Positions 9,885 through 34,122 of a stretch of 64,000 bases of DNA are shown in pieces. The notes under the pieces were generated by a model. The model did not search any database, had not been told where the DNA came from, and was given only the letters and a program-made list of their open reading frames with translations. A program made the translations under genes and the position numbers. The DNA comes from Octopus vulgaris (Eukaryota), in the NCBI GenBank assembly GCA_951406725.2, contig OX597820.1:124992001-125056000 (forward strand). The letters are read 5' to 3'. The first letter of the stretch is position 1. The number at the start of each line of letters is the position of its first letter.

Positions 9885-9889
<5 letters not shown>

Positions 9890-10069: not shown

Positions 10070-10128
<59 letters not shown>

Positions 10129-10129
<1 letters not shown>

Positions 10130-10595
10130 CAATTAAGGACAACTACTTAATAAGGAAAACTTAACAAGAAATTGTCAGGTAGATAGCGTGAAAACCTCAT
10201 AAGAGAAAAAATTTCGAAAATAATTATTTCTTATTGAACATATTAATTTATATATAGAGGGCATTATACATACATGCCAGAGGGCATTATACATACATGC
10301 CACACGCTAAGAGGGACAATTAGTCATTTCTACCAAAAATATTACTAATCCCACCGAATGCAATTTTTCAAAGTAAGACATTTAAAAAATATAGAACTGT
10401 ATCACAGTGATTTCATACTTACGTATTCATCAGCAGGCCTGAATGTATCATAAATAAACGACCCTGCCCCGCTTAAGCCGATCAGCTATTGCATTCGGTG
10501 GGATTAGTAATATTTTTGGTAGAAATGACTAATTGTCCCTCTTAGCGTGTGGCATGTATGTATAATGCCCTCTGGCATGTACGTATAATGTCCTC

Positions 10596-10606
<11 letters not shown>
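10129..10606. mobile_element. (TA)n-embedded foldback cassette (Penelope-like pseudo-LTR type): 119-bp inverted arms with a hammerhead in the spacer
   Basis: Arms 10246-10364 and 10488-10606 are reverse complements with 2 mismatches; each contains a tandem duplication of agagggcattatacatacatgcc; (TA)n on both sides. Confidence 0.75.
10393..10440 (-). ncRNA. Minimal type I hammerhead ribozyme with intact catalytic core
   Basis: Minus strand: AGGCCTG-CTGATGA-ATAC(GTAA)GTAT-GAAA-TCAC(T)GTGA-TA-CAGTTCT. Core CUGAUGA and GAAA exact; 4-bp stem II with GNRA loop; near-loopless stem III; AUA cleavage triplet; stem I 6/7 paired including one G-U. Confidence 0.78.
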
Positions 10607-10659
<53 letters not shown>

Positions 10660-13519
10660 TATAGCCTAGGCTTAGCAATACCGATAATCTGGTATTAGAA
10701 CTCAATACAGGTATGCTTCCGAATAAGCGTTAGTCGAATACAGGTTCTAACATAATATTAAGTAAATTACTGAGCTTACAGTTGCTTCTACCATAGTTGC
10801 AGTGCACATAGTACTGAGTATATGTGAATTACCTTGTAATTTAAAAATCTAGGGGAAATATATTTGGGAATGCCTTCACAGAGATTGGAAAGATCGCTCT
10901 CGTAAGAATAAAATGATACATTTGAAATGCTGGTGTATAGAATCTGAAGAAGAAAAGGTCTCTCATAAATAGGAATTTTAGATAAAATGTCGGATGAGGA
11001 CCCTTATATAAGTAACAATATATGCGCATACATAACATTAAGGCAGAATAATATGTTAACATTGATCATAATAACCCAGACGTAAAAGAAGGGCACCCGA
11101 GGCGGATAGAACACGAGATAATACAAGACCTAGGGTGACAGATTGTAAGAACAAAAAAAAGATAATAATGAAGGAATGCTGTCGTCAAGATGTTTGGTTT
11201 TAAGTAACAGTTGGAATGGGCCTGGACAACGCATTCATTAATAAATTTTCAATATTTGAGAGTTTACAAGCCAACCAATGATTTCATGTGAAGAGATTTC
11301 GAAATTCCTCAAGCGATACTACATGGAAGTGCTGACACTCATATTCATTTTGGATGATAATACCCAAGAATGAACGTGATTTCGAAATGAATATACAGAA
11401 AACAGGATATGATTTATATAATATACAGTATCATACACACAGAAAAAACATAATAATACACATACACACACCTGTAAGACACGTTTTATTCATGCTTATG
11501 TCTGTACATATAATTATTTATGGTATCTTTGACTCCAAATTTCGTCCATGGTGTTAGAAGTTTATAAGTTCATGTACATTTGTATTTCCTGTGTAGTATG
11601 TGACGTCTTGAATATGTGCTGTATATACACATATTAACAATATATAAAAAAATACATGTAACGTCGTGAATATATGCTATGCATATAAATCTGTGTATTT
11701 TATTGGTGTTTATATCTTGAATGTATAATGGACATATAAATCATAATGTGCATATAATCGATATAAAAAAGAATAAATAAAACTTGGCCAGACTGGAGCT
11801 GTGGCAGGGATTAATGCATGAAATTTCGAAGTGTGAATTATTTCTTGTACTTACAAAGGGAGAAGGATCTCTCTTTAACATTTAAAATGTTCGCTAATGA
11901 CGTTATGATATTTAATTTTATCCATGAAACAGAGGAGGCATTTGTTAAACCATCCCTATAATAGCGGACCTTAGCTATGATGTTCCTCTTTTTAAGTGTC
12001 CAATCCATTTTGGATAAAGATAATGTGTGTCTTTTGCCTTTTGTCACCGAACGATGCCAAATATTGCCCATATATCTCGTTTTTCCGTTAAGCCCATACT
12101 CTTAATAATGGGAAGAGTCACTTCATTGAATATATTATTGTGTGAAGCTATGTAGATGAATTTGAATTCACTCAATATTTTTACTATATTTAATTAAGAA
12201 AAAGGTTGGATACTATTTCCTGGCAGACGATTAAAAATGATTTTTCAATTTAAGTCGCTCTTGCTCATGCAGAGTTAGTTTGTTTCTTGGTGAAGTTAAA
12301 CTCGATTTGGTGACAACAGCTGCAGTTGAAATAACGGGTTCAATTGAATCGAATACTGTTTTCATGAAAACGCAATTCCTAACTAGGTGAGAGTTAATTT
12401 TTTTTATTGATTATCCAGAACTAGCACATTAAAAAAATTAAATTAAAATTAGAACAGTAACGTTGCTGAAAACACCTTGATCGTAATTGAATTCTATAGT
12501 AGAACAAAGACTTTGAGGGATACATTGAAAGACTATATAACCAATATAGAAGTACAAATTTATTGTGTCGATGTTTAATCTACGCATGCTGAAAACAGCA
12601 TATTGAATTGCTTTGAATTGATGTAACAAGAGCTGCTTTCGACAAGCTGAGCGCCAAATGTTATAGAATACTATGAATGTTAGAGAATGGATTCAATGCA
12701 ATACACTACTAACGCTGAAAATTTTCGGTCTAAAAATTGTTCAATAAATAGGATATGCTTATCTGAGATGGTTTGCTCCGAGCATCTACTTACCATTGAT
12801 TTTCAATAATTTTCAGGTATGTATTTGTGTAAAATTTCAAAATATTTAAGAAGGGCAAAGTTTGGTTAGCTCTCTTCTATACAAAGTAAAGTACACTATT
12901 TGATCACATAGTGGTAATAATGACGTAATTGTCAATATGGAATATTGATATATTTCGAATAAGCAAAGCAATTATTGCAAATATTTGTATGGTAATCACA
13001 ACTAAAGCTGAAAATCACTCGTTAAGGTACCTCAGGGTATTGTCTCAAAAAAGGGATTAAACTATTTTCATATTATTTTAGTCGATAACTTATATCAATA
13101 CATGTGTATGCATATAAATATGTATACACACATAAATGCATAACAATACATATGTATGTATGTGCGTATGTATGTATGTATTATGTATTATGTATGTATC
13201 TATATATATATATATATATATACATACATATTTGCATACCTATATCTGTGTGTATGTATGTGTGTGTGTCTACGACTATGTATATACATACATGCATGTA
13301 TGTATGTGTGTGTATGTATAAATAGAAATGAATGTGTATGTAGAAATTGATAAGATCACGAATAGGTGCTTATAAAGTCAAACACAGATGTTTTATCTCT
13401 TTGTCAGTCTATCTAGCCATCAATGGCTCTGTACATGTATGTATGTGTCAACATATATAGGGAGTGAGAAATAGATAAATATCTAAAATAGAGCGAGAGA
13501 GAAACAATGGAGAAATATA

Positions 13520-13576
<57 letters not shown>

Positions 13577-14300
13577 TAAAAAATGTATGTTTTAGAAGTG
13601 CAAACATAGAAGAGAAAAACATTGCGATTTCTTCTTTAATTTACTTTCAACTTCCGAATAATTTCTCGTTTGCCGACCTGAGGATATTAACCGTAAAACT
13701 AGGCATAAATAAGAAATTAACACATACGGTAAAGGGAATGTGGCTGCGCGTGAGCATGTACTTTTGCTGTGTGTGTGTGTGCGCGTGTATAAGTGTATGT
13801 TTATCTCTCTGTGTGTGTCTGTGTGTGTGAGCGTGAATGTGTGTGTATGAATATGGCAGTGTGTGTATGTGTGTGTGCCAACATTATAAAACACCTAATA
13901 AATATATTTTCGGAAAATGTTATATACTTGACAAAGGACAGGAATTATAATTATGTTTTACATGTGTTGTTATATGATTGTTTAAATGAATGCAACCACC
14001 ATCAGTATCGGATATATACCTACCCCTATATTTCCATTCGTTAATATATGTATGTTTAGAGGGAGGATTGTCAAATATGTAAACACACAGACACGTCTAA
14101 TTTAATGTCCTTCTCCCTAGAAATTTCGAGCTGTGTGCTTCGAGTAGAAAAATATACGGACAATTATTAAGCGTAAATGCATGTTTTTATATCTTTAATA
14201 TATATCATTATGTATTTATGTATATATATATATATTTATATATATTTATATATATAGGCTATCGGGCAAAATAATATTTGTGTAAGAATGCATCATTCCC

Positions 14301-14641
14301 TTTTTACTTGCTTCTGTCATTAGACTGCAGCCATACTGAGGCACTTGATTGAAGAACTGTACTCGAATGAATCGGACCCAGTACATGTCTTTCAGCCTAA
14401 TGCTTATTGTATCGGGCACTTTTGTCGAACCGCCGCTCTACAAAGACGTAAACGCACCGACACAGACATATATACATACAAAAGATACCTTTCAATTTTC
14501 GTCTACGAAGACCCCTCACAAGAATTTGGTCGGCATGGGGCTATTATAAAAGACACTTGCCCAATGTGTCACTAACTGGGACTGAGCCCAGTGCCATGTA
14601 GTAGGGAAGTAAACTTCTTACCACACAGCCACACTTACACC
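14301..14641 (-). mobile_element. SINE family B, diverged
   Basis: cttcttaccacacagccac head end, agacacttgccca, gaaccgccgct, gactgcagccat. Confidence 0.75.
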
Positions 14642-14688
14642 TATGCCACTCTATATCTACCAATGTCTATTTTTATCTCACTGTGTGC

Positions 14689-14727
<39 letters not shown>

Positions 14728-15281
14728 TATATATATATATGAGTGTGTATGTGTTTGAGTATGATTGTATGCGTGAGCGTGTAATTTCGTGTATGCAAGT
14801 TTATACACTTACAAAATATGAGATATTTCAGATAACATCTTCGTAATAGTTTTCTCTCAGAGATGTAAGTTAGATCACAGAAACACATCGGAAACGTTCT
14901 TCCGTTATGGCGATTAAATTTCATTTTGTTTCCGCAAATAGACACACATAAATATAATTTAATTTCATATACGTTTGAATTTTTCACTGTATCCTGTTAT
15001 TTTGTATGGTGGTGATGTTCCGTTTCTGCTGATATATTTGTTGATGGAAGTTAAATGTAAAGATCATTTATGCCCGTGTATTTTTAAATATTTATTCGGA
15101 AGTTGTTTCTGCATAATATTCCTGTTGTATATTCAGCAAATGTATAGATATAACTTGTAAATATACAATAATGAACATATTATGAATCAAGAATTCATAT
15201 ACGATTGTGTGTATATATCTAACTTTCTATGAATCTATGTATCTGTCTATTTATCTATCTATCTCTGTAAATACCTATCTT

Positions 15282-15315
<34 letters not shown>

Positions 15316-15317
15316 TC

Positions 15318-15405
<88 letters not shown>

Positions 15406-16396
15406 CATACATGTGCTTTTAGTATGCATTTTTGCATAATTTTTTCTTGTTATTTACTACTAAATATGCAGAAAGTTAACATCGTATTCATGGAATATTA
15501 TTTTCATAATTGTGATGCGGGTATTTCGAGAAGTCCAGGCATTAATTGAAGTTTTAATATAAAAAGTGATTTTAAATGCATATGCTCTTATTTCTATAAT
15601 TCTATTACATTTTACATTGAATAAATTCAAAACACTTCAATTGTATACAAATATAGCCCTTGATAGTAAAATCTAAACATATCATATCAAAGATAAATAA
15701 TATTACTAAAATTATATCCATACAAAATATTACAATCCCAAAATAGAAATTATATTTAATATACTTCCATGTACGCGTTTTCAAAATGAAAGCTTACTGC
15801 CCAGTTTTTGTCCAAAAATATATGCAAATGTTAAATAACAGATTCTGCTATCAACTTTTTCTTTTATGCTCAAGCTCAGAATATGCACATGGGTGCTTGC
15901 CAATAAATTACAGATTTTTCTTAGTATTGAATTTTATCTTATAAAATCGACTTATTACAGATTTTATCACGTACCTAGTATTATAATTTACCTGGGAATA
16001 GTCTTTGAATAGAATTGCATTTCTTTTCGATATTAAAGATCAGTAAATGAGTTATTAAGACGGGCAATATGATACGCTTCTATAACTTTAGCTGAAGACA
16101 AAATAATGAAAAATACTCTTATGGTTTATTTTATAGATAGAAAATATTGATTTCATATACAAGAACAAAAACGAAATTTGTAAAGAAATAGGTATAATTA
16201 ATAGATTAAAAACAAATATTGATCCTGTGGTTTGTCTAGTTTGTATGTACTATGACGACGAAACCTGCAAAGCAATCCTCGAAAGATCAATAGGTTACAC
16301 AACATTTTGAAAATCGGTGAGATATTTTGAGTTAAGCACTTTCATACCATGGCAATCGTTAAAATGAAATAATTGCTCCTAGCACTAACGAATTGG

Positions 16397-16600
16397 TTCT
16401 GATTTTGGCTTTAGGCCAACAATTTTGTGGAGAGGTAAATGACGATTATACTGACACCAATACTTGAGTGCTATACTATTTTATCGAACTTAAGGCAAAG
16501 CCGACATACGTGGCATTTGAACTCAGGATGTAAACAAAATGCACGAAATGGTACTAAGCAATTTGCTCGGCGTGCTAACGGCTCTGTTAGCTCGTCGCTT
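16397..16600 (-). mobile_element. SINE family C, diverged
   Basis: ggcatttgaactcagg...gctaacggctctgttagctcgtcgc. Confidence 0.6.
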
Positions 16601-17502
16601 TTTTTAAAATTTAATAATCATATCATATATGTGCTATCATAATCTGTTTAGGTATATGACATTTCTTGCTTATTACTACTCAAATGTAAGTACATTTTCC
16701 TAAGTTTTTATACCAAGCGATATCAAAAAGAAGTTCAAAATTTAACTGGAAATCCTTCCAAACATTTCTTCTCTAAATATTTAAATTTCAATATTCAAAA
16801 CAAAGATTTTGAAATAGCAACGTGTACGTTCACTTTTGAAAAATCTGTTTATGACTATGTTTAAAAATGTGGAAAATGTATCAAATGCATAAATCTGTAA
16901 TAAGGATTAATATAAGGCGATTTTATTGGTAGTTGACTTATTTAGGTTAAGATCATAAGGGCAGAAGTTCAGCTCCTAAAGTGGTGGAGATATTTGTATA
17001 GTTGAGCAAGGCATTTCATTACTTGTTGCTTCTGTACCAATCGGTTGCTAGTGCAGCTCTCTCACCTACTAAATATCACAACAGCCATATATGCCACTGG
17101 GTCGCAAATGAAGGAGCAGAGAATATGTGTATGGCTGCTGGCGGATACATTTTCAGTTACGAGTGATTAATGAATCTGCTTGTAATTTGATGTTCAGACA
17201 GATTAAATGTTTTATTAACAGTAGACGTAGAGTGAAATATTTTGCGATTTGTAACGAAGAGATAAAAAAAAAACTCGCTTCAACATTATATATTCGTGAT
17301 ATCTTCAAAGCACAGTGTTATAAATTGTAGAAAAGGGTGTGTTTTATGTTAATGCAATAGGTACAAAGAACTTATTTCCTGTAAGATGAAAATAGATAGA
17401 TAAATAAAATATGTCAATATCTATTTTGTCTTATTCATTATTCTAAATGCGATTTAGGATTCGTGGTATATATTTTCATCGTAATATAAACTGAGTCTGA
17501 AG

Positions 17503-17670
17503 AGCGGCAGATGGCAGTCTTTATGCATTTCGTCCATCTTTACATTTCGAGTTCTTATTCTACCGAGTCCGATTTTGCTTTCATGGTTTCGGGGTCGATA
17601 AAATAGACACCATTTGTACAATCGAATCGAATTATTTGGTTTTGTGCCGAGGATTTGAAACCAATATTAG
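17503..17670 (+). mobile_element. SINE family C, internally deleted
   Basis: gcggcagatggcag...gctttcatggtttcggggtcgataaaa...tttgtgccgaggatttgaaaccaatatt. Confidence 0.6.
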
Positions 17671-18207
17671 CTGAATCGATGAAAATCTTCGATACAAAAT
17701 CTTCATTGGCTCCTGAGGTTACATTTATGTATTTTTTTCCATTCATAATGCTATGTATTGATGAATGGACAGTACCTATGGCTTTCTAGAAGCACTGAAA
17801 TATACGTTACCTAGAGCAATTAAATACTTTCAAGTCAAAAAGACATGAGATGGAATTAGATTATAAAGATATGCATTCTATTGAGAAGGACATGATGCGC
17901 TTTTTATTGTACAACATCGGGAACATAGCTACAACACAGGGATGAGAAGAGGAGAGCTAAGTCACGAATGGTTGACTGGATATGATATAAGATCAGTCAG
18001 CTCTAAGAAACACACATCATTGTAGTAAAGGAAGAAATATCTGAGGGTGGCCACAGTATAGTGGTAAACTGCGTGATTTTATGACACCAAATCTAGTGAC
18101 CCTTCTCTGGATGCGACTTTCAGTGCCCGAGTACAGTAGCAACGTCACAGAAGAAGGAATGGTACCCTTTTGCGTGACTCTTTTGTTTCCTAGGATGACA
18201 GTAATAT

Positions 18208-18450
18208 TTGTGTCTAGGGAGAGTCATTTTCTTTTTGTGCTTTATAATGTAACACACTCACCGGTAAAATTTCCACTTTTTCTTATTTTTGTTTTCCTAA
18301 AATTGACACTTATTAGTCAAGACTATTAAAAAAGGCGGCAAGAGGCAAGGAAAATTTTATGAAAATAAAAATAAGGAAAAAGTGGAAATTTTACCGGTGA
18401 GTGTGTCACATTATAAGGCACAATAGGAAAATAACTCACTCCAGACACAA
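18208..18450. repeat. Inverted repeat, ~97-bp arms, 48-bp spacer
   Basis: 18208-18304 vs 18353-18450; core acacactcaccggtaaaatttccacttttt / aaaaagtggaaattttaccggtgagtgtgt is perfect. Confidence 0.8.
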
Positions 18451-18798
18451 CAGAATGAGCTTCAACACACGAACTCGTATAAAGAATCTTGCAAACCAAA
18501 TTCAAAAACGAAATATATATTTATATATATATATATATAAACTGCATTTTGAAATATTAACATGAAATTGAATATTAAAAGAATTCCTCACGACGATATG
18601 TGTCTAAAATAGTATTATATTAAAATTATATGTAAATATATGAAGTATGATTTTAAAAGTTTGATAATTAATGGATCTTACGAGCGGTTCACTCGTATTA
18701 AATATCAAAATGCTTAATAGTATTCATATTTTCGACACTTTATGCAAAGAGCACTCATTATATATTCAACGTATAATATTCTCACAGTATATATTTAA

Positions 18799-18847
<49 letters not shown>

Positions 18848-19685
18848 TAAAGTGAACAAGAGCTCTAATCAGCACAAGTATTGCTATAAATAAGAGGCAA
18901 AACAAAACAGTCACAAAAGCACTATCTTAATAAGGCGACAAGTGAGACAATCTCCCTAGGGTAACAGATAGAACCAGATCACCGATGATTTCGTATTTCG
19001 ATGCTCTCCCCGCGCCTACGGTTAAGCACATCACGCCTCGTCAGCTAAATATATTTCCTTTGATATAATACGCTGATTTCATAAACGGTACAAGTGAAAA
19101 TTATAAATGATATGCGTGGCTAATTCGAAAATTAAAAAACGAAAGCCGAAAGATATATGTCACTAAAGTAAATAAGGGCGCTAATCAGAAATAATCAACA
19201 CCAGTATTACTGGAAATATCAGTGAAAACAACTCAATAGCCACAAAAGCACACTCGTAAGGAGTTAAATGCGAAATCATCGTTAATCTGGCTCTATCTGC
19301 CACTGTAGGGAGCTTTTCTTCTGGTCAGCTCATTAATCCCCCTATATTTTGCTTAGATAATATACTGAATATCTTGATGACACCTTCGGCATTCCGATCA
19401 TTGAAATGTGACAAATTAGTGTAGATTATATATATTTCATGTCGTTCTACTGATATTCTAATTGAAAATTAATATATATTAAGTAAAAGATGTATCAATT
19501 TAGTTTTCCTTGCATCCGTTAGTACTACAAATGATTTCTTTAAACAACTAAATCCATAGATATATATCCTATCCATATTCACAGAAAGTGGCCATTTGCA
19601 AACATCTTCACTACAAAATATTGATTTTGTAAATAATTACTTCACATATTGTTTACTAAATTCATTTTCATTTATTATTTTGCAG

Positions 19686-19856
19686 TTATCCTATGCTGAC
19701 ACAAATCCTTTACTGTCAGATCGAAAGGAATATGAAAATTTTTTCCGAACAGTACCCAGTGATAGTGATTTTAATCCGGCCAGACTTGCACTTTTGAAAC
19801 TTTTCCAATGGTCCCGAGTTGGGACCCTCTTTGAAGATACATCCGAACATGGATAT
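19686..19856 (+). CDS. GABBR2: Internal coding exon (57 codons, phase 0/0) of a GABA-B receptor subunit 2-like class C GPCR, Venus-flytrap domain
   Basis: Acceptor ttttcatttattattttgcag|TTA and donor TAT|gtaagt. Translation LSYADTNPLLSDRKEYENFFRTVPSDSDFNPARLALLKLFQWSRVGTLFEDTSEHGY matches the GABA-B signature LS(Y/F)xxxxPxLxDxxxYxxFFRTVPSD...W.RVGT. Subunit assignment is by recalled similarity to GABBR2/GABA-B-R2 rather than R1, so a paralogue is possible. Confidence 0.88.
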
Positions 19857-19946
19857 GTAAGTAATACTTTTTTGTGTTTCCTTAATATAAGGGACTCGTT
19901 TTTAATAGAAGAGAAACATGGCTAGTAATTTCAATGGGGAAAATTG

Positions 19947-20050
19947 ATTTGTAAAACGAGTAATTCGCATAACGAGTTATTTATTTGTAAAACGAGTAAT
20001 TCGCATAACGAGTTATTTATTTGTAAAACGAGTAATTCGCATAACGAGTT
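19947..20050 (+). repeat. 36-bp tandem repeat, ~2.9 identical copies
   Basis: Unit atttgtaaaacgagtaattcgcataacgagttattt at 19947, 19983 and 20019; probably inside a decayed MITE, 90 bp after the GABA-B donor site. Confidence 0.9.
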
Positions 20051-21408: not shown

Positions 21409-21448
<40 letters not shown>

Positions 21449-21503
21449 GTATACATATACATACATATATATACATATACATTTATGTATGTGTATATAT
21501 ATG

Positions 21504-21555
<52 letters not shown>

Positions 21556-22017
21556 CAATAATAAAAAGGTAAAATTAATTAATTATTAATTCATTTTACC
21601 AAGTAGTGTTCAGTATGTAAAAAGACCATTTACGGTATATTTAAAACATTACGTTATATAATTAGGGTTCAGTAAAAAAATTTACTTTACCACACACCGA
21701 ACTTTTAGAAATAGCAGTCCACAAATTTTAGCTATTTCTTCTACTATAAGGAAAGTCTATATACATACATAGATACATACATTCATTACTTGCCAGTACA
21801 GAGCTGCTGCTGGTGGATCCTATTTATTTATGTAATCATTTATAAAATAATGTATTTAATGGTGTAATAGGTAAAACTCAGCAGCGAATAGCTGATAACA
21901 GTGCACAGGAACAATTGTGTCATTTGTAATTAAAGCAGCTTCAATGCAGCTTCATGATTTAAGGTTTTTTTTAATATAAAACCTGTACATGCAAACGGAG
22001 ATCTATGTGTATATCCA

Positions 22018-23318
22018 GTTCAATAAGTAATGCCTCTGACCCACTTCCCATGGCAGTAGAGCAACGAAACTTGGCACAGTTATTAGTCTTTTTCTACATA
22101 GGAACCACCCAGAGTTACGCATTTCTCCCATCGTTTGATGACTCTGGAGACAGTTTTTGTAGAGGACCCCAGCTTGGTCCTCCAACCACGACGTGACTTC
22201 AGAAATCTAGGCTGTATCATCTGGGAAACGCTTTCCTTTCAAAAACAACATCATGGCTGGAAAGAGGTGAAAATCAGAGAGTGCAAGGTCAGGAGAGTTG
22301 GGGATGGGGGAGGAGTTCATAGCCGCATGCCTGTGCTTCTGATCTGGCAACACGTGAGTTGTGGACCTGAGCGTTGTCCTGCAGGAGGAGGATGCCTTTA
22401 CTGATCTTGCTCCGCCTCTTGATTTTGATAGCTTCTCTTAATTTCCTCAAAAGTGAAGCATAATAGGCTCCTGTAATTGTGGAACCCTTTGCCAGGAAAC
22501 CTGTCATCACTATTCCGTCCTGGTCTCAGAAGACTGTGAGCATGACCTTACCAGCGGAGGGCTGCACTCTCGCCTTCTTTGGAGGAGGTGAGTCACGGTG
22601 CTTCCACTGCATTGACTGGGCTTTGGTCTCTAGATCATAGTGATAGACCCAGGTTTCATCCTGTGTGATCAGTCTTTTGAAAGATTTTGACTCATCTTCT
22701 TGGCACATCTCCAAATTCATCCTCGAGCACTCAACGCGTTCTTGCTTCTGGAAAGGTGTGAGAAACTTGGGAATCCATCTGGCAGACACCTTTTGCATAT
22801 GCAAATGGTCATGAATGATAGTTTCCACAGACCCGGTACTAATATTGACCTCATAGGCTATTTGGCGAATAGTTATGCGTCGATCTTCCAAAATGGCAGC
22901 CTCAACTTAATGGACAGATGCCTCATCAATGGCAGAAAGGGGGCAACCAGATCTGGGAGCTGTTTCCACAGAGCTCCGACCATGTTTGAATTCACTATGC
23001 CAGGGTTTTACAAGGTCATATGATGGGGCATCATCACCATAAGTTACTTTCATTTCATCAAACGTCTCTCGTGGTGTGCGTCCTTTCAAATACAAAAACC
23101 GGATCACTGCTCGACACTCAACAGGCTCCATTTCACACTTGACTCAGTTCAAACACCTGTAAATCAGAAACCACAATTAGATCAGAGCCACTTCATCTAT
23201 TGCCACTTCATCTATTGCCACTTCATCTATTGAGATAAAAATGTTTTCACATGCAAAATTTCAGCAAGATCAAACAACTGCAAATGGGCCAGGGGCATTA
23301 CTTATTGATCGTCCCTCG
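22018..23318 (-). mobile_element. Mariner (DD34D) DNA transposon, near full length, transposase pseudogene
   Basis: TIRs gttcaataagtaatgcctctgacc (outer ~8 bp lost) and ggccaggggcattacttattgatcgtccctcg-TA. ORF 23131-~22080 (MEPVECRAVIRFLYLKG, WIPKFL, TQDETW, LQDNA) has two in-frame stops and a frameshift at HPPYSPDL. Confidence 0.93.
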
Positions 23319-25875
23319 TATGTATGCATGTATGCATGTATGAATATATCTATTTGTGTGTCTGTCTACCTACCTATATGTATGTCTGTCTGTCTCTCTA
23401 TCTATGTATCATTCTATCTATTTATCTCTCTCTTTCTCTCTCTCTCTCTCTGTATATATATATTAGGTTGTTTCACATGAAATGTTGCATTTTTAATTAC
23501 TTGTTATTTCAGTCATTTAAACGTTCAATTATGTATACTTTACATTTAATGTTGACATTCCTTTCCCAACAATATTGGTATACAAAATTCGTGCCCACAG
23601 ACCTTATGATAATGATAATATGTGTGTGTGTAACAAATTAAAATGGTAGCTTATTAGTAATTAAATTGTGCCCTCTGTTAAGTTTACCTTTAGGTTATAA
23701 TTTCTAATGAGACACCCTTTTAATTTGTAGTTTTTAAAATATTTTTCTTTCGTTTTTTTTATTTTATGTGAATTTTCTAACCTACAATTGAGAAATACGT
23801 CATTTTCAAAAGATAAACTATATAATAGCAATCATATCTCACTGCACAATACATTTTGCTACTCTGTGGCTGCGTAATCTATTAATCACACATAATTAAA
23901 AATACTTTGATAAAATTGGTTTTCGAGCATTCATTCACGATACAACCTTTTATGAATAACCAGATTCAATTCTTTTAGTGAAAAAATGAAAAGTATCCGT
24001 AACTGTTTGGAAATACAGATATATTGTCATATATATGTTATGATATATTTCTAATCTCTAACGTTATTATCATTCAAAAATTACGGGTATATTATTAGAA
24101 GGTGTGCAAAATTATTTTTTGGATTTTTGACAGAATGTATATGATGATTGTTTCAGTCATTGGACTACGGCCATTCTCGAGTATCGCTTTCTTTACACAA
24201 CTTATTTCGACACTGAATTAAATTCTATAAATGAATTTGCAGAATTACCCATCGATTTCAACATACAAGTGCTGTTGAATAGCCGATTTTCAGTGTTATT
24301 ACAGTTGCACTCGTGGCATCAAAGCTTAAATACTCTATCTATTGCAAAATCGCATGGACAGAGGAAATAAATAATAGTCACTCTTTTAAATCTTTGTGAT
24401 ATCTGCGTTTTACTGCAAGGTGTCAGCTATACGTATAGTCAACTATAATGTAATGGAATGTAGCTTGGTTTTAAACACTTGTTATATGTTCTTATGTTTC
24501 AAAATATTTACGTATAAATCTAGTATGAAGTCTCAGGTTTACTGTTTCACTGTTATATGCAGCTGTAATATAGAAATAATATCTAGGATATTTGTTATTG
24601 TAGGCATCAGATTTGAAGGTGCATGTATGTAGCTTTTATTTTAAGTTTAATAGTTGAATATTTGTATAAAATTTAATGATTTATCTAGAAAATTAGTCAC
24701 AAGAAAATGTATATCAACGGTAATTTGAATGTTTCATTCCTGGAGTGGTAGAGCTTTCCTTTTAATATATTACATAATAATAAGGTATATAAACTGCTTC
24801 TTATCAATAGCGCATTATCTTGATAAATCTGAGTGATATCTTATTGAATCATTTATCTAATGAAATTAAAGTATATGCGGAAATTAACTCGTAAATTATA
24901 CTAAGAATATAGAGAATAAATGCAATTTTCCTCTGACCATATATCACGAAAAGGTAATGATTTTTATGCATTTATGGTGTTTCGTTCCCCAATTCACTGA
25001 CTCAGAGGAAATTTTCAGTGAAATGCAATGCACCTCGGAGCAAACATCTAGTTATATAAAGGGGGGGGGGGGGAGATTTTCATTTATGATTATTTGGGTA
25101 AATTTGTATTGCTAATTATTACTGGTATTTTTAAACAACTTATTACCATAGTGTAATTATTTTATGTAATTCTATGTAATTTTATGTAATTTTATGTAAT
25201 TACCATAGTGTAATTAGTTTATGAAATTCTAACAATTTTTTGGTTTGCTGTATTCAGTGCGAATGTAATTGAGTTTCTTAACATGCTAACTAGAATGTTT
25301 ACAAAATTATATTTACGATCCTTCACAGTAATACAACTTTGTGGTGCAGCAACACGTTAAATATAAATGTATCAACATTAAGTATACGTCTTTGGCCTTT
25401 CACCCTGCATTTGTAATAACCAGGAGCGTGGGTTTCAGGTTATCGTTCAAGCTATCAGTCAAGCCTCAGCAAATTACACTCTACTATTTTAAAGAAAAAG
25501 TAGGTGAGATCTGAAAGCGTAATCCTAGATGTACTGAAAGATATAATACCCACTAAAACATCGTGTGCTTAAGGATAATTTCCGAGTAGGTTTTCGACTA
25601 TAATCAAACTAAATATGAGAGAAATTCTTCAGAATATTGATTTTCTGATGACGTTATATGCTTAAGGGTTAGCTTATTTTAAAAATTTATTCACTATAGT
25701 TTACAGCAAACAATTTTATGCTGAAGCATCACATACCACATCAAATGAAATTTATGAAATATTTAATCAACACACATTAATAATGGCTATTGGAAATAAG
25801 CGCGAATCCTTTACTTGACGCAACATTCCGGTTGAGCTGAGAACAATTATTTGAGGATTTATGAAGATGAAGATA

Positions 25876-26028
25876 TTTATTATTATTATTATTATTATCA
25901 TTATTATTATCATTATTATTATTATTATCATTATTATTATCATTATTATTATCATTTTTATCATTATTATTATTATTATCATTATTATTATTATCTTCAT
26001 CATTCTTCTTCTTCTTCGTCTTCTTCTT

Positions 26029-26059
<31 letters not shown>

Positions 26060-26080
26060 TTATTATTATTATTATTATTA

Positions 26081-26111
<31 letters not shown>

Positions 26112-26112
26112 C
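25876..26112 (+). repeat. Compound (ATT/ATC)n-(CTT)n-(ATT)n microsatellite
   Basis: Seen directly. Confidence 0.97.
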
Positions 26113-26264
26113 ATAGTTATCATTTTTTAATATTTCATTAAAAAGACTTGAATAAAACTATACGTTTCTATTCTATTAATAATAATGTCCTTACAATTTT
26201 ACATATTAATTCTGTTGAGTTTAAGTTTAATTTATATAAGGAGAAGATTTAAAAGACAGCACGT

Positions 26265-28089
26265 GTATCATTTAATGTTTAATTAAATAAATGTGTGGAA
26301 TAGCTGAGAACGTGTATGCACTGATTAATAAAAGTATTCTTAGTTGGAAAATGCGTCTTTCCTGTAACGACCAATACTTGGCCGAGGTAAAAATCAAAAG
26401 CGATATCTTCCAAGGAGACTCTTGTTTACCTTTGTTATTTGTTATAGCCTTGATCCAATTTTCTAGTGTCCTATGTAAAACCAACGTGCAATATGAGCTG
26501 AGAAAGAACGGACTTCATTTCAACCAACTTCTCTTCGTGGATGATTTGAAACTGTTCGCAAAAACAGACTCTCAAATAGAGAGGCTGGTTGAGACTGTGC
26601 AAATGTGCAGCAAGGGTATAGGAATAGAATTCGGTATCTCGAAGTGTGCGGTACTTACTTTGAAGCAGAGAAAGAGAGTAAATTGTAGAGGCATAAAATT
26701 CCAAAATAGAGACAGAACGGAAGACTCGGATGATGATGGGTACAATACCTTGGGATCCTAGAGGTGGACAATATCTTGCACAGAGAAATATAAGACATGT
26801 AACCACAGTATATTTCAAGCGCCTGAAACTTCTCTTGAAATCAAAGCTCAACTCAAGGAAACTTGTAACTGTCACCAACATAAGGGCTGTTGCATTAGTC
26901 CGCTGTAGTGCACAGTCCGCTGAGATGGACACAAGCGGAGTTTGACCAACTCCATCGCACTAACCGAAAGACAATGCCAATGCATGGTGCTCTCCACTCT
27001 AAGACAAATGTACACAAGCTCTATATGAGAGAGGTAAGGGTGAACGTGGGCTGACTAGAGTACGGGAGTGCATTAACAGTGAAAGAAGAAACATGGCAGT
27101 GTATTTGGTAAACAGGAAAGAAGACCTGCTACAGTATGCTGCTGGTGCAGAAGGAGTTAACAAAAATGAACTTGAGAGTGCCTATGAATTCCGATCTAGA
27201 ACAGCCAACGGAGACAGAAGAAACTCTACTTCGTATGGAATTACATTGTCAGTTCCACCGTGAAACTAACAAATGAAAAGACCAGGAAGCATCATGGTGG
27301 TAGCTCAACAAGGGGACCTAAAATAGAATACTGGAAGCCTAACCATCGCGGCCCAGGACCAGGCATTGAATACCAACTCAGTGAAAAAGAATATATAGGA
27401 CACAAATGCATCGCAATTCTGCAGAATGTGTGGGAAGAGGGTCGAAAGCGTGACTCCCATTCCTAGTGCTTGTGAAAGTCCTGCGGAGAAAGAGTACAAG
27501 CGTAGATGCAACAATGTAGCCCAAAACCTCCACTGTCTACTATGCTGTAAGTATCGATATAAGGTTACGGGTACTTGGTATCACCACACACTAGAAAAAG
27601 TAATGGACAAAAGGGGGAAGGCAAAAATCCTATGGGAATTCGATTTCCAGACAAAGTGTTACAGCACCGAAGGCCGGATATAGTAACCTTTAGTTGGGAC
27701 AAACCAGAGTGCCTAATTATCGACGTCGTAGTCCCAAGAGATTATCGCATCATCATGAAAGAAAGAGAAAAAGCTGATAATTATGGAGACCTGAGAATTG
27801 AGATCGGTATCCTGTGGCAGCTACGAGTGTCGAATATAAAGTTTATCCCTATTGTCATCAGAGCATTGGGTTCAATACTACCCAATCTGATAAGAACATC
27901 TGAAAACCTTAGAAATACCCTGCAATCTAGATGAATTGCAAAACTCGGCATTACTTGGAACTGTACACATATTGCGTAAAATACTCTCTGTCTTAGGTCC
28001 TTGTTGTTACTTAACAAACAGTACAAACCCCCGCTAGACACAATATCTTCAATCAACAACCTCATATTGTACACTGTGCGACATCTATC

Positions 28090-28090
<1 letters not shown>
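26265..28090 (+). mobile_element. 5'-truncated R4/Dong-clade non-LTR retrotransposon (RT, CCHC, restriction-like endonuclease), decayed
   Basis: IFQGDSCLPLLF, LLFVDDLKLFAK, EFGISKCA, CRMC..VES...SAC, RRPDIV...CLIIDVVVP...KEREK..Y.DL; ends directly at (TAA)n 28091-28123. Confidence 0.88.
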
Positions 28091-28124
<34 letters not shown>

Positions 28125-28134
28125 CATCCTAACC

Positions 28135-28352
28135 ATAATGGTTTCAAATTTAGCTTGAAGAGCAGCAATTTTCTACGAGGAGATAAGTCGATTGTATCGA
28201 CTCCATTGTTTAATTGATACTTATTTTATCGACCCTCAAACGATGGAAAAGGGAAGTCGACCTCACCGGAATTTGAACTCAGAACGTAGCGATGATCGCA
28301 ATATCTCTCAGCATTCTGTCCAGTCTGCTAACAATTCTGCCTCTCGCCGCTT
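28135..28352 (-). mobile_element. SINE family C
   Basis: ggtttcaaattt...ttatcgaccc...ggaatttgaactcagaacg...aacaattctgcc. Confidence 0.75.
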
Positions 28353-29889
28353 TTTCAATAATAGTAATAATGATGATGATGACCATAACGGGATTTTACT
28401 TGAAATGAGAAAGGAGTTTAGGCTATCGAATATACGTATTACAGATGTAAATTTTAAAAGAGGCTGATACATAAAATAGATGAACTGGATATATCTTCGA
28501 TACGATGCTGCTAACTGACTTGGATTTAAAAGCATATCGTATTAATTCTTAGTGTCCGTATGGAAAGTTATCACTAGCATAAATAACGAAAACCTGAATA
28601 GTGTTAATACATATTCATGAGAGAGTTGAAATCAGTAATTATAAGCCTGTTATAAACTTAATATTGATCAGCAAATTAATAACTGATGACATTGCATTTA
28701 AACCTATGTCTTTCTGGGTCATAACTTATTAACGGAAGAAGAAAAGTGCTACAGAGTGATATCAAAGGTACTATTGATTTATTGCATACCTATCGAATGA
28801 TACTACGGAAAGGCCAAATCAAAATGAAGTGAACAGTTCTTTGAATAAACTTCAAAAAAGCATATGAGAATGCACCATATTGTCATATTTCGGATTGCCT
28901 AGAGACATTCGATATCCATACGTTGTTGTATCAGAATCTAGAAAAATCGATACGGTCATGGCAGAAAGAAATATTTGGTGGGAAATAATCATTAGGGAAT
29001 ATGAAAGACCGGAGAGACTCATATTTTTATTTGAGGAGACTCGCGTATTTTTAGGGACACTCATCTTTTCAATTTTTTCTTCTTTGTATCTATTTCTTTG
29101 ACAACATACTGAGAAGATTCAGGTCTGCTTGAGAAGAACATGAAAATTCTAAATCATTTGCTATAGAACGATAAACTCAAATTATTCACTGGAAATGAAA
29201 ATTGAAGTGCTTCTAATAGTTTTTTTTTAAGCAAGGATATTTGGTAACAATAATGGAATATAGTTTGTTTTCAGTATGAACACGAGTGCAGTATTAACCA
29301 TGAAGAACATTGCATTATCAGACAAATTTGCCATAATTTGATATCATCTGAAAGAAAATGTTGGCTGCAAATATCGAGCGGTGCATCTAAATGCGTAATC
29401 GATCACTAAAGCAGTCTGTACGCGGACTATGTCAGTGTTGAAAAAAAAAAGATTTTTTATTTTATAACTACAAAGGAAGAATCACATAAATGGCAAAACA
29501 GAAGGAAGATACTAACAATGTATGATGCCCAACACTCTAAACAAATTATCGATAGGTTTTATTTACCTAGGGACAAGGAAGACGAACATGTGTTAAATAC
29601 AGCACAAGTGTTGTAATTTTGGCTTTCGTATGTTGTACTTATTGCAGCGAAAAATGTAAATTCACTGAAACAATGAAAGATTTCCTGATCCGAACGAAGA
29701 ATCCACTAAACAAAGATCTAGAAGCAGAAAGTATTATACGGTCATTCCATAAGACAAGGTGAATATGACGGAAACAATGAAAGCTGGTTATTACTGAAAA
29801 ACGGAATTTTGAAATGAGAAACGGATACACTAATCATTTCCTCTCTAACAGAATACCTTGAAAACGTACAGGTAACTATCAAACATCTA

Positions 29890-30105
29890 AGTGATTAGAA
29901 ATGATTACAAAAGCTCGCATGATTGCGTCGGTAAAACTGTGCACTGGGATGTTATCCAAATCGTTGCATTCCAAATGACGGAAAAGTGTTATGGACATAA
30001 GCCAGGGATTGCCATAGGGATTGATTATTGAAGAATTTTGTGGGATTAATTCTTAGATGCTGATCATGCCCTCTCAGCTAGAAAACCCAGATATAAATTA
30101 GGAGA
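29890..30105 (+). mobile_element. Short, highly decayed R4/Dong-like C-terminal fragment
   Basis: Patchwork translation YKSSHDCVGKTVHW...YGHKP...ILWD...DHALSARKPDI. Confidence 0.45.
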
Positions 30106-30610
30106 GAGAGTATGGACAATCAGTGCAAAATTATTGATGTAAATATTCTTTTTTTTTTCTCGGTTTACATTAAGGGAAGGTTTGCTTTAACACATCAGTT
30201 GCATGAGAGGACTACACTCCGCTACTGCTGTTGTTGCTATTATGCTTAATCTGGTGTGTTTTCATACTTTGATTATTTACTAAAATATCTCAATATTTAC
30301 TCTCGTTCATGCCATTGTGTTTTGGTTTTGTGTTGCTTTGTTTACCATTGCAGCTTTTTTTTTGCGGTTCGTCTAAAGAGACTGATAGAATAAGTACTAG
30401 GCTTTAAAAAATAAGTACTAGAGACTAGACTAAACAATCCTTCAAGAAAGTGTTCCAGTATGGCCGTAGCCAAATGACTGAAACGAGTTCTATAAAAGAT
30501 AAAAGGAAAAATAAGTCTTCTATTCTTTACTTGTAGCTTAGTTATGTTTGGTGGTCATTGTGGATGGGAAAATTTAATGCGTGTCAAAGATGTTTACAGC
30601 TTATCAGACG

Positions 30611-31035
30611 TGTCTGTGTGGTAAAAAGCTTGTTTCTCAGCGACATAGTTCCGGGATCAGTCCCACTCCGTTACACCTTAGGTAAATGTCTTCTGCCATA
30701 ACGTCGAGGCGATCAAAGCCTTGTGAGTTGATTTTGTAGGCGGAAACTGAAAGAAACCTGTTGTATAAATATATATGTATATATTTGTGTGTGCGTGCCG
30801 GTGTGTGTGTGTGTGTGTCTTTGTTTGCCACCACCTCCATTACCGCTTGATATCTGGCGTTGATATGTTTACGACCTCGTAACTTAGCGCTTCGGATAAA
30901 GTGAATGATAGAATAAGTACTAGGCTTTAAAAAATAAGTACTGTAGTCTATTTCTTCGACTAAAACAATCCTTCACGGTGGTGCTCCACTATGGCCGTAG
31001 TCAAATGACTGAAACGTGTCCAATAAAAGATAAAA
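30611..31035 (+). mobile_element. SINE family B (a further 3' fragment at ~30364-30510)
   Basis: Same head, internal (TA/TG)n and 3' region as 38834-39243. Confidence 0.82.
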
Positions 31036-32631
31036 TATCAAATAAGCTTTGTATGCATTACTTGAGTGACGCGGCCGATAATATTTGTTCATACCAGTGC
31101 TCCAATGACAATTTCCTTTCGTAATAATTGAACAGATCGTATTTCGAATAAAGATGCAGCAACACAAGACGTAACAAATCTTTCTAATTTTGTCTCAATG
31201 CCAATAGTTCGTGGTATATTGATTACATCGACAATATTTTGTTTACTTATCGACCTCGAAAGAATAAAAGGCAAAGTTGGCCGCGCTGTATTTTGACACC
31301 GGGACCTAATGAGTCGAAAGAAATACTCCTAGCTTTCTTACCTGTCTTTTTCTGTGCGATCCTCAAATATTCTTCCAGTTTACTGCCTTAACAACATGCT
31401 TGAAAGCAATAATGATATATTTCTCATAGGCATTAATAGCCAGAGCGACCAATCATCGGGCTCAATTTCTTTTCACTGGCAGCATAATATCTTCATCTCC
31501 ATTTCCAATTCGCAATTACTTGTATCCCGAATATGCTAATTAAGCCATCAGTAGATTTAATCAGGTATGCTGCAGAGACATGTATGGACTTTTTAGTTTT
31601 CCTTCAGATGCAATGATAAAATATTTAATAAAATATAAATGTCTTTTCAATACATTAACCATTTTCCGGAGGAGAACTTAGAGTTAAGTGATCCATTTTT
31701 ATCTCGGAATGATGCACATTTACTTTCTATTATATACTTTTTTAAGAATATATTTACTCGTATTTACAGCTCTTTTCTTTTCCAATCACAATTTACTTTG
31801 ATGTCTTTTCCATAGCTATCTTTGTTATCAGTTTCATAAATGTCATCCAAGTCTCGTACACTTCCTGAGTTGAAACGACATGTAAGTTTATGTCGCTTAA
31901 TTATCATTTCTGTTTCCTGAACACATTCTAACTCACCTCAGAATACAGATCTTTTAACTAGTTTAAAATTAACAATATACAATGATATCTGGATTATACA
32001 TCACAGCAAAATATGAGACAATCACAGTAGATGTACAACAATCTCTGTTATAGGTTTACAACACCGTAAGATGATTGAAAATCGTGGCCACGAGTATTTC
32101 GCTTTTTCTCAAATGCATCTTGTCTAAATTGAAGTTGGAATTTTATGCCATTCCTTATTTCAAAGTTTCTTTTTTAATTCCTTAATTTCTTCTCTCTAAT
32201 TGCCTGTTTTTGTATACGTAAACAGAGCGACCAATCATCGGGCTCAATTTTTTTAAATGTATTTCCTCATTGATGCCGACTTTTTCTAACGTTTCACAAG
32301 ATTTCTTGTTTTTTAAATACTTTTTCTAAATTCTTCGGAATAAAAGATTCAGCATGGGCTGCCGAAGACACTCACAATTTCTAAATTCCTCGTTAAGTCC
32401 TGATTTAGTAATAACATTTTTCTTTACTTTTCCTCTTTACTTTGAGACATTTCTTTCGTGGCAGAAAGCTCTTACAAACTCGTATCAAATTTTCCACACA
32501 CACACACACAAACACGTACACACATACACACACACACACACGCACACGCACACACATATACGACGATTTAAAAGTCTGTTAGCAGCATAGTGGCATAGAA
32601 ATAATTTTCTTTAGCACTTGTTTATAAGTTG

Positions 32632-32675
<44 letters not shown>

Positions 32676-32678
<3 letters not shown>

Positions 32679-33133
32679 AATATGGCTAACCCCTAAGGGT
32701 GGATGCTACTGTAGTTTTTAGCCCCAGGAAGACATCTCCCCCAGCTGGCTATATATACACTTTCTGTGTCCTCTCAGTATTTGCAAAGGGAAGCCATCCT
32801 TACCGTCTTCAACTTATGATACACAGGGACCCGAGATTCAAGGTATTGACCTATCATCAGCGTGTGACAATCACAGTTGTCGATAGGAAGGAGGTTCTCC
32901 TTACAAATACATATACTTTTTCCAGTGTTCATAAGTTGAAGACGGGAAGGATGGCTTCCCTTTGCAAATACTGAGAGGACACAGAAATTGTGTCTATAGC
33001 CAGCTGGAGGAGATGTCTTCCTGGGGCTAAAAACTACAGTAGCATCCACCCTTAGGGGTTAGCCATATTCAAATGGCATATTTACATCACGATGTGTTTC
33101 TGCTACTGTTGAAAACTCACTCTGATATTTATC

Positions 33134-33135
<2 letters not shown>
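32676..33135. mobile_element. (TA)n-embedded foldback cassette: 144-bp inverted arms with a hammerhead in the spacer
   Basis: Arms 32676-32819 and 32929-33072, about 5 mismatches; 109-bp spacer; (TA)n both sides. Explains the mirror ORFs 32699..32974(+) and 32774..33049(-). Confidence 0.78.
32822..32866 (-). ncRNA. Minimal type I hammerhead ribozyme with one core substitution (GAAA to GAAT)
   Basis: Minus strand: CACACG-CTGATGA-TAGGT(CAAT)ACCTT-GAAT-CTCGGG-TC-CCTGTG. GUC triplet, near-palindromic stem III, stem I 5/6 paired. Lies in the spacer of a 144-bp inverted repeat. Confidence 0.62.
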
Positions 33136-33174
<39 letters not shown>

Positions 33175-33237
33175 GTGTGTGTCTATTTGAGCTTATAAGT
33201 GTGTCTGTCTGAACAATTAGATACGTATTACATACGC

Positions 33238-33275
<38 letters not shown>

Positions 33276-33379
33276 CTGTGTCTGTGTCTGTGTGTGTGTA
33301 TGTGTATATATATATATATGTGTGTGTGTGTGTGCATATATATATATGTATATGTATATATATATATATGTATATATTT

Positions 33380-33616
33380 TTCTCCCCTTTTCAACCCTAC
33401 CCAGGCCCATGGGCCCGGTTCCCCGGTTTCTGTGGCGTATGTGTTCCCCCACCCCGATCCAACACAAAATAGGATGCCACCCACCCCCTACCGGAGATCA
33501 TGGAGCTTTAGGTGTTTTCGCTTAATAAACTCCCACCATGCCCGGCCTCGTAATTGAAACCGCGATCCTCCGACCACAAGTCCGCTGCCCTAACCACCGG
33601 GCCATTGCGTCTCCAC
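33380..33616 (-). mobile_element. tRNA-derived SINE, family A
   Basis: Minus strand gtggagacgcaatggcccggtggttagggcagcggac...cggtttcaattac...gcgaaaacacctaaagctcca...gaaaccggg. Confidence 0.75.
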
Positions 33617-33740
33617 ACACACACACCCACACAAACACACACACACACACACACACATGTATATATATATATAAATATAAATATAAGAAATTAAAAACGG
33701 AAAATACGCACACTTACACAGTTTTAATATCATTTTTAAT

Positions 33741-33775
33741 ATATCGACAGGTTTCGCTATCACTATTCATGATAT
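33741..33775 (-). ncRNA. Second, inverted copy of the A3:U8 hammerhead-like motif
   Basis: Minus strand: ATATC-ATGAATA-GT(GATA)GC-GAAA-CCTG-TC-GATAT; 5-bp stem I and the same variant core. Confidence 0.5.
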
Positions 33776-33980
33776 TATGTTTTACTTATTTGAATATATA
33801 TTTGGTCAATGCTTTGTGTGATGAAATTCACGAGTGAATGACTTCACAAGTAGATAAATAGAGGGAGTTAATTGGTTGTCGTTATTATTGTTATTGTTGT
33901 TGGTAAGAGAGATAATTGTTCAGCTTTCGGTAATGGGTGGGGATTTAAGAAAAAATATATATTAAAATAAATGAAACATA

Positions 33981-34015
33981 TTATCATGAATAGCGACAGC
34001 GAAACCGGTCGATAT
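33981..34015 (+). ncRNA. Minimal type I hammerhead-like motif with A3:U8 core covariation
   Basis: TTATC-ATGAATA-GC(GACA)GC-GAAA-CCGG-TC-GATAT. Palindromic stem III (ACCGGT), GUC triplet, stem I TATC/GATA; core A3 U4 G5 A6 A7 U8 A9. Confidence 0.55.
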
Positions 34016-34122
34016 ATTAAAAATTATATTATAACTATGTAACTGTGCGTATTTTTCTTTTTTAAATTCTTATATACATTACAACTCACCACGTAGGGAT
34101 AATCGAAATTCCTCTTTTCTGT

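Follow-up and report, generated by a model that had tools for sequence, protein, structure and literature searches.

Hammerhead-bearing fold-back cassettes at (TA)n tracts of Octopus vulgaris: probable Penelope-like insertions of non-coding repeats, one of them a likely retrozyme

An AT-rich 64-kb stretch of the Octopus vulgaris genome (contig OX597820.1, positions 124,992,001–125,056,000; hereafter the window) is crowded with microsatellites, and among them lie three fold-back cassettes, C1, C2 and C3, in each of which a hammerhead ribozyme can be predicted. What these cassettes are, and what placed them at (TA)n tracts, is the question that the locus raises. A preliminary description had presented them as three sequence-unrelated units of one architecture, with inverted arms of ~120–145 bp, type I hammerheads and flanking (TA)n, and had ascribed them to a possibly overlooked system of non-autonomous self-cleaving-RNA retroelements or to solo pseudo-long terminal repeats (pLTRs) of Penelope-like elements (PLEs). 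The cassettes and their common architecture proved real: the arms, defined by local alignment, are 89–97% identical over a measured 123–151 nt, and no cassette matches another by BLAST. We read them as head-to-head, 5′-truncated copies of non-coding repeats with predicted hammerheads, likely inserted by PLEs, with C1 likely a non-LTR retrozyme of ~450–480 nt and with C3 and several relics likely pLTR ends, and we give this reading a probability of about three in four. The cassettes would likely be passengers and leftover ends of known PLEs. A new system is not supported: retrozymes and PLE ends have both been described already.

In C1, the arms (10240–10364 and 10488–10612) agree at 121 of 125 positions and their innermost 65 nt are identical. 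The cassette is composed of a direct copy on the minus strand (10129–10487), comprising 359 nt of a high-copy family, which is 5′-truncated 54 nt upstream of the hammerhead core and has its 3′ end in a (TA)n tract (10062–10128), and of an inverted, 5′-truncated copy on the plus strand (10488–10596), which matches 10364 down to ~10250 and has its 3′ end in (TA)n at 10596–10663. The two ends are unequal, with a one-sided extension of ~115 nt; the segment responsible (10129–10240) belongs to the element and not to the flank, as family contigs cover 10129–10488. A 23-nt duplication is common to both copies. Both arms also carry G at the position of 10282, where ~90% of the family depth is A, which suggests a single template for the two arms, although the duplication complicates this interpretation. 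The direct copy is non-coding (33% GC, with stop codons in all three sense frames), and the 272 nt downstream of the cleavage site contain stops in every frame. The truncation point of the direct copy (10478–10488) lies, as judged from the letters of the window and loose contig ends, within a hairpin loop of the family sequence whose stem is 6 bp long, and this hairpin recalls the palindromes described for PLE inversion junctions.

The predicted type I hammerhead of C1 (10393–10440, minus strand) has the core CUGAUGA at 10433–10427, a 4-bp stem II with a tetraloop, GAAA and a palindromic stem III. Cleavage is predicted after 10400, and there are zero core mismatches to CUGANGA, GAAA and UH in type I order. 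The copy in the window carries a stem I change at 10396 that is absent from the family majority; C at this position, found in nearly all of the family depth, makes stem I 7 bp long, its pairs having probabilities of 0.92–1.0, as against ≤0.01 in this copy. At the second variable position of the hammerhead, 10426, the pair is kept as G·U. In total, 13 positions vary at ≥5% in a DNA run; none of them falls within the 13 positions of the core, stems contain two (with pairing kept or restored) and the 13 nt directly upstream of stem I contain four. The family allele folds with stems I and II at probabilities of ≥0.92, and its palindromic stem III, which reaches ≤0.03 in the monomer, pairs with itself at −10.1 kcal/mol, leading us to predict action as a dimer; such dimer action has been described (PMC6765202).

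The C1 sequence is widespread in public data: 10129–10595 is present in at least 20 of 24 listed runs, in 17 of them with at least half of its words, across eight studies and three organism labels. None of the 24 is on record as RNA, so that they are uninformative on expression. Contigs from four runs were aligned to C1, and statements on individual pieces and joints refer to the matches listed (a further 1852 pieces and 95 loose ends lie beyond them). Two DNA runs yielded 959 and 878 family contigs, with summed depths of tens to hundreds of thousands over 10129–10488. The C1 family is thus high-copy, 10129–10240 included, and not the single-copy sequence that the preliminary description had named as an adverse outcome. 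One contig covers 10129–10425 in a single piece, and in three of the four runs copies run on past 10488 with a common, different sequence (8, 3 and 2 contigs); 10488–10596 is therefore an added inverted copy. Five contigs from two runs enter (TA)n at 10244–10246, the same end as that of the C1 inverted copy, so that ~10245 is a recurrent endpoint. Arrangements in which the 5′ ends of C1 and C2 point outward, or in which the ribozymes are antisense, were considered and rejected, the left C1 arm being internal to the direct copy in the public contigs.

Two further contigs loop back on themselves. One runs from 10488 back to 10129 via 116 letters, with a period of 476 nt and a ribozyme with one difference; the other, from a diverged subfamily, runs from 10390 back to 10160 via 263 letters, with a period of 480 nt. 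The record of the latter is 510 nt long and covers 10180–10209 at both ends, so that these look like the ends of a closed loop. The two contigs come from runs of different studies that are only guessed to be RNA, and tandem DNA is here indistinguishable from circular RNA. A period of 476–480 nt is too short for a reverse transcriptase (RT) and an endonuclease, which argues for a unit of the non-LTR retrozyme type.

Animal non-LTR retrozymes were defined by Cervera and de la Pena in 2020 (PMC7229834). On sequence grounds C1 shows their testable features: it is non-coding, with a GC content below 50%, high-copy, furnished with a type I hammerhead and, in the two contigs, organized as a short unit that is circular or repeated head to tail; further likenesses are an indel polymorphism of ~20 nt and a dispersed copy of monomer scale. 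Its unit of 476–480 nt is just above the 150–450 bp given in that paper and within the 51–972 bp of a 2026 preprint (Li, Clavereau and Pollet, bioRxiv 10.64898/2026.07.22.740005), which derives retrozymes, mostly of vertebrates, from pLTRs by homology and reports co-occurrence with PLEs and, in the accessible text, no insertion structure. C1 differs from the retrozymes of both accessible texts in its inverted insertion and its microsatellite target, and cephalopods are absent from them. We conclude that the C1 family likely represents a non-LTR retrozyme whose unit measures ~450–480 nt. The earlier attribution to non-autonomous self-cleaving-RNA retroelements or solo pLTRs is accordingly supported for C1 by its high copy number, the better hammerhead of the family majority and the two short-period contigs, and for all three cassettes by their PLE-like geometry.

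The arms of C2 (32676–32827 and 32922–33072) are identical at 145 of 151 positions. Its direct copy (32676–32921, minus strand) has its 3′ end in (TA)n at 32634–32676, and its inverted copy (32922–33135, plus strand) outruns the direct copy by 63 nt on its 3′ side, where it enters (TA)n at 33136–33173. The predicted type I hammerhead (32810–32880, minus strand) has an extended helix I, which is paired in the predicted fold; its core begins at 32860 and cleavage is predicted after 32828. It departs from the consensus by GAAU for GAAA (U at 15.1), a U·U at the base of stem II, as in axolotl HHR_Amex2, and one stem I mismatch. In the local alignment the inner end of the inverted arm maps to 32827, which immediately follows the predicted cleavage site. 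This coincidence may reflect microhomology, because the last ten alignment columns hold a mismatch and a gap.

C3, with arms at 33681–33803 and 33953–34075 (109 of 123 positions identical), carries a minimal hammerhead in each arm. The inverted copy (33681–33803, minus strand) has its core at 33770, cleavage predicted after 33746 and its 3′ end in an imperfect TA tract; the direct copy (33804–34075, plus strand) has a hammerhead at 33982–34014, with core AUGAAUA, a 2-bp stem II and a CCGG palindrome, cleavage predicted after 34010 and a 65-nt tail ending in a short TATATA. The 3′ ends are thus equal, 65 nt past the predicted cleavage sites in both arms. In both motifs (33986–34010 on the plus strand and 33770–33746 on the minus strand) the C3–G8 pair is replaced by A3–U8; the natural core swap described in the accessible text of the literature is the opposite one, U3–A8 (PMC4209133; PMC3088659). 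Of the type I hammerheads attributed to the three cassettes, then, that of C1 has a complete core and those of C2 and C3 agree in part, with one core change in the former and A3–U8 in both arms of the latter. The claim of flanking (TA)n also holds for five of the six cassette ends, the left tract of C3 being imperfect; it fails at the right end of C3, where there is just the TATATA and the next long TA tract begins at 34162.

Decayed relatives of such motifs occur elsewhere in the window. The preliminary description had listed further TA-adjacent relics, of which those at the 6611 and 56540 sites stand and form one family (family F), identical at 148 of 172 positions in the alignment; each copy has U at position 6 of the core. 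Copy 1 (6611–6780, minus strand) holds a minimal hammerhead relic with its core at 6740, the change A6U, an extra base before stem II, cleavage predicted after 6713 and a tail of ~100 nt into (TA)n; copy 2 (56548–56709, plus strand) has a more decayed hammerhead (56586–56613) and a 97-nt tail into (TA)n at 56710. The listed sites at 6469–6565 and ~34850 are plausible only, as readings of the sequence that may be due to chance. The former has a relic at 6474–6540 (minus strand), with a 4-bp stem II, GAAA and UC intact, a decayed 5′ core and a short tail into (TA)n, and the latter a possible relic at 34847–34965 (minus strand), with stem II and the 3′ half kept, a decayed core and a tail of ~85–90 nt into (TA)n. 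At 130–400, also listed, no convincing hammerhead fold was found, and the site is absent from the matches of the wider descriptor described below. Possible decayed hammerhead halves, which may likewise be due to chance, were seen at 21700–21750 (minus strand) and 63270–63297 (plus strand), with an 8-bp stem II and with GAAA, a 6-nt palindrome and UC; their tails into (TA)n measure 150 or 75 nt.

The geometry of the three cassettes is alike: a 5′-truncated direct copy is joined to an inverted 5′-truncated copy and the 3′ ends face outward (polarity was established from public contigs for C1, from the orientation of the hammerheads in both arms for C3 and by analogy with C1 for C2). This is the form of PLE insertions, for which an inverted 5′-truncated copy, an optional tail and a bias for (TA)n have been described (PMC8557442), and the cassettes resemble the pLTR ends of endonuclease-containing PLEs in the head-to-head inverted copy, the optional one-sided 3′ extension and the (TA)n or AT-rich target (PMC4209133; PMC8557442; PMC3846280; PMC11167929), as well as in a ribozyme placed 65–270 nt inside the 3′ end and a palindromic stem III. 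Minimal hammerheads paired on opposite strands 100–700 bp apart, with a U3–A8 core, have been reported for PLE pLTRs (PMC4209133), and the paired motifs of C3 are of this kind; family F shares with PLE pLTR hammerheads the extra base before stem II and G10.1–C11.1. C3 and family F thus look like PLE ends, and membership would need an open reading frame (ORF); together with the other relics, C3 likely represents truncated pLTR ends of PLEs. The likeness among the cassettes is not one of sequence, as an all-against-all BLAST of 11 stretches gave a single cross-match, of 22 nt, between C3 and a fold-back at 9886.

In motif scans C1 is the only zero-mismatch hammerhead match in the window, with none in six shuffles and none in the reversed window; a strict descriptor with a 4-bp stem I found no match in the window. 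A wider descriptor, changed post hoc after the data had been seen so as to allow any Watson–Crick 3–8 pair, gave three zero-mismatch matches of score ≥7 against none in 20 shuffles, and three matches of any kind with score ≥9, whereas shuffles gave 0.65 on average and 3 at most. Five of the seven top scan matches have (TA)5 or longer within 160 nt downstream, the background being 0.106. For the direct copies of C1 and C2 the predicted folds are more stable than those of shuffled sequences (z = −2.2 and −2.6), whereas C3 is unstructured (z = +0.95). Self-duplexes of stem III, besides that of C1, are predicted at −6.9 kcal/mol for C2, −8.9 kcal/mol for C3 right and +1.3 kcal/mol for C3 left. An exact-pattern scan of metagenome contigs found neither the C1 nor the C3 motif (0 matches each); a single motif match among viral contigs, lacking stem I, was taken as chance.

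A route by which PLE proteins could have produced such cassettes can be proposed. A tandem array would be transcribed, and its hammerheads, dimerized via their palindromic stem III, would cleave it; the template for C1 would have been uncleaved or re-ligated RNA, because the direct copy runs across the cleavage site. (TA)n, which reads identically on both strands, would be nicked in trans by a PLE protein, and complementary DNA (cDNA) would begin internally, at AT-rich points that lie downstream of the ribozyme, in C1 at ~10245 or 10129 (both ends are observed, and ~10245 is recurrent). Synthesis would proceed from both broken ends of the (TA)n break, and two truncated cDNAs would join head to head; this geometry is observed, and the route to it is our suggestion. 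The proposal agrees with findings on the PLE of Anolis: in AT-rich DNA it cleaves both strands, it initiates reverse transcription internally, and its template is unprocessed RNA (PMC11167929). Alternatively, the inversion could have arisen by self-priming on an antisense template, as has been proposed for PLEs (PMC3846280).

Several observations weigh against this interpretation. No GIY-YIG domain or PLE RT was found by Pfam in 300 of 379 stop-to-stop, non-repetitive frames scanned, in agreement with the preliminary description. The three-stem cores resemble those of the Rfam hammerhead families by motif scan, yet the comparison with Rfam suggested earlier went against them: no model matched in focused scans at E up to 10 (0 of 8 matches), and the whole-window scan contained no hammerhead among the 150 of 196 matches listed; the matches of both kinds of scan were microsatellite-driven or weak. 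Taken in isolation, the motifs are no more stably folded than shuffled sequences (z from 0.56 to −1.75), and C1 is predicted to fold as a monomer without stem III. The expectation that the C1 core would be conserved above its surroundings is borne out in direction and not in significance (0 of 13 positions variable against 13 of 347; Fisher p = 1). The association with TA is weaker than it appears, because one of the five TA-adjacent matches is probably noise and the other noise match also lies within 245 nt of TA. The short C1 unit is seen in two contigs, with no tandem joint among the listed pieces of the two DNA runs (each ≤142 nt), and none of the listed contigs crosses the C1 inversion junction. 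Finally, the ends differ by ~115 nt in C1, 63 nt in C2 and not at all in C3, as compared with PLE tails of 30–40 nt.

These points bear on the alternatives as well. If all of the cassettes, C1 included, were ordinary 5′-truncated pLTR and tail ends of autonomous PLEs, the looping contigs would be stacked truncated insertions; the geometry is indeed that of published PLE insertions, this explanation is the one already preferred for C3 and family F, and the short period has been seen in just two contigs. However, those contigs represent two diverged subfamilies with near-equal periods, the direct copies of C1 and C2 are structured, and the 272 nt past the C1 cleavage site are closed in all frames, whereas the ORF of the Anolis PLE begins within the ribozyme (PMC11167929). 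The cassettes differ from autonomous PLEs in having no RT or GIY-YIG ORF in the frames scanned and no ORF starting in the C1 ribozyme. That all the cassettes, C1 included, are plain PLE ends we regard as unlikely. Retrozyme-like units could also have been moved by another non-LTR element, or folded back after insertion through template switching or repair at TA hairpins. The window does contain elements with RVT_1 matches (26291–27934 and 57930–59785) and fold-backs without hammerheads (9886–10061, 18208–18450 and 39053–39438), and long interspersed nuclear elements (LINEs) have been left open as retrozyme mobilizers (PMC7229834). Neither variant readily accounts for the same polarity in three unrelated families or for an inverted C1 copy that ends where other copies enter (TA)n, which marks an insertion endpoint, and the copies of RTE-like and R4-like elements in the window are free of such an inversion in self-BLAST; we consider both quite improbable.

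Miniature inverted-repeat transposable elements (MITEs) with TA targets are short and non-coding, with inverted repeats in a TA context, and long inverted arms flanked by TA, in a window that also holds mariner elements, might suggest that the cassettes belong to MITE-like DNA transposons, the arms being long terminal inverted repeats and the hammerheads chance or captured. In C1, however, the inverted repeat is not the unit boundary: the left arm lies inside a longer continuous unit, internal to family sequence, and other copies have no inversion junction, so that the junction is not a normal part of the family, which argues against a MITE and largely refutes this origin for C1. The ends of C1 and C2 are moreover unequal and the zero-mismatch hammerhead matches exceed those in shuffles, which makes a MITE origin very improbable. 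That the fold-backs are assembly artefacts at microsatellites is extremely improbable; the identical inner 65 nt of the C1 arms and the junction that no listed contig crosses would fit an artefact, but the arms differ by 3%, 4% and 11% in C1, C2 and C3, unlike those of a fold-back read.

Beyond the head-to-head insertion of non-coding repeats by PLEs that we favour, a bolder version may be entertained as a tentative and on balance doubtful possibility: C1 would be an abundant and hitherto undescribed octopod retrozyme, expressed as a circle or multimer of ~480 nt and integrated by PLE machinery through twin priming at (TA)n with cDNA crossing the cleavage–ligation site, the inverted C2 arm, starting at the cleavage site, would record in the genome a cleavage that took place in vivo, and the C3 family would be built on a natural A3–U8 core. 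If true, this would provide direct genomic evidence for the movement of an animal retrozyme, together with a new natural core variant. A literature search, mostly without subscription papers and supplements, found no report of cephalopod retrozymes, of PLE-type inversion on retrozymes or of a natural A3–U8 core.

As for the surroundings of the cassettes, one exon, from a gene resembling GABA-B receptor subunit 2, was found at 19677–19860 (plus strand). Its peptide shares 97% identity with P0002, a protein labelled as octopod that has GABA-B-receptor domains, and 63–77% with other molluscan relatives, and an ANF_receptor match at 19560–19922 is the sole non-transposon Pfam match above the curated cut-off in the frames scanned. 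A tblastn search of the window with P0002 recovered this exon only, and because the window holds just one P0002 exon the three cassettes likely sit in introns of the receptor gene. Relative to the exon, the ribozymes of C1 and C2 are antisense and the right C3 motif is sense; a 36-nt tandem repeat (n = 3, 98% identical) lies immediately 3′ of the exon, at 19943–20050. The fold-back at 9886–10061 adjoins C1, has a geometry like that of the cassettes and lies between two (TA)n tracts, with arms identical at 51 of 54 positions and a right side ~85 nt longer; that at 18208–18450 has arms identical at 87 of 97 positions and does not adjoin TA. Neither these two nor the one at 39053–39438 contains a hammerhead.

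Other mobile elements are plentiful in the window. The RVT_1 matches at 26291–26758 and 57930–59782 read by motif as R4-like and RTE-like, respectively. The first belongs to a decayed R4/Dong-like element (26291–27934, plus strand) with RT and restriction-like endonuclease motifs, situated between (TTA)n and (TAA)n; the second is an RTE-like RT (57930–59785, plus strand) with a frameshift near 59030, which lies inside a repeat resembling a short interspersed nuclear element (SINE) at a TA stretch and splits its halves. The SINE-like family, with internal (TG)n, recurs at 14306–14646, 30364–31064, 36335–36717, 38830–40033 and 57779–60003, with some copies in partial tandem and some tail to tail (39053–39438 and 39788–40027). 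Two mariner-like copies (46411–47550, plus strand, retaining a 246-residue transposase frame, and 22018–23155, minus strand) are 92% identical, inverted and 23 kb apart, with more mariner fragments at ~45567–46203 and ~55476–56268. A 199-residue frame at 52617–53216 (minus strand) gives a weak DDE_Tnp_1_7 (piggyBac-like) match below the curated cut-off.

Animal retrozymes are known, but their mobilizer has only been hypothesized, PLEs being named only as strong candidates (PMC7229834); the added value of this locus is a PLE signature on a unit of the retrozyme type. With its head-to-head inversion, (TA)n target, recurrent internal 3′ ends and intact cleavage site, C1 makes the question of the mobilizer testable, and the A3–U8 core and the C2 arm that ends at a predicted cleavage site offer two further leads; otherwise the cassettes are ordinary repeat debris, likely intronic. 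In a survey of Octopus vulgaris, 31 Penelope-like families count as recently active and 893 SINE families are unclassified, with ribozymes and retrozymes unmentioned in its accessible text (PMC13282606), and our results suggest that some of the unclassified SINE or unknown families of the octopus are ribozyme-bearing retroelements.

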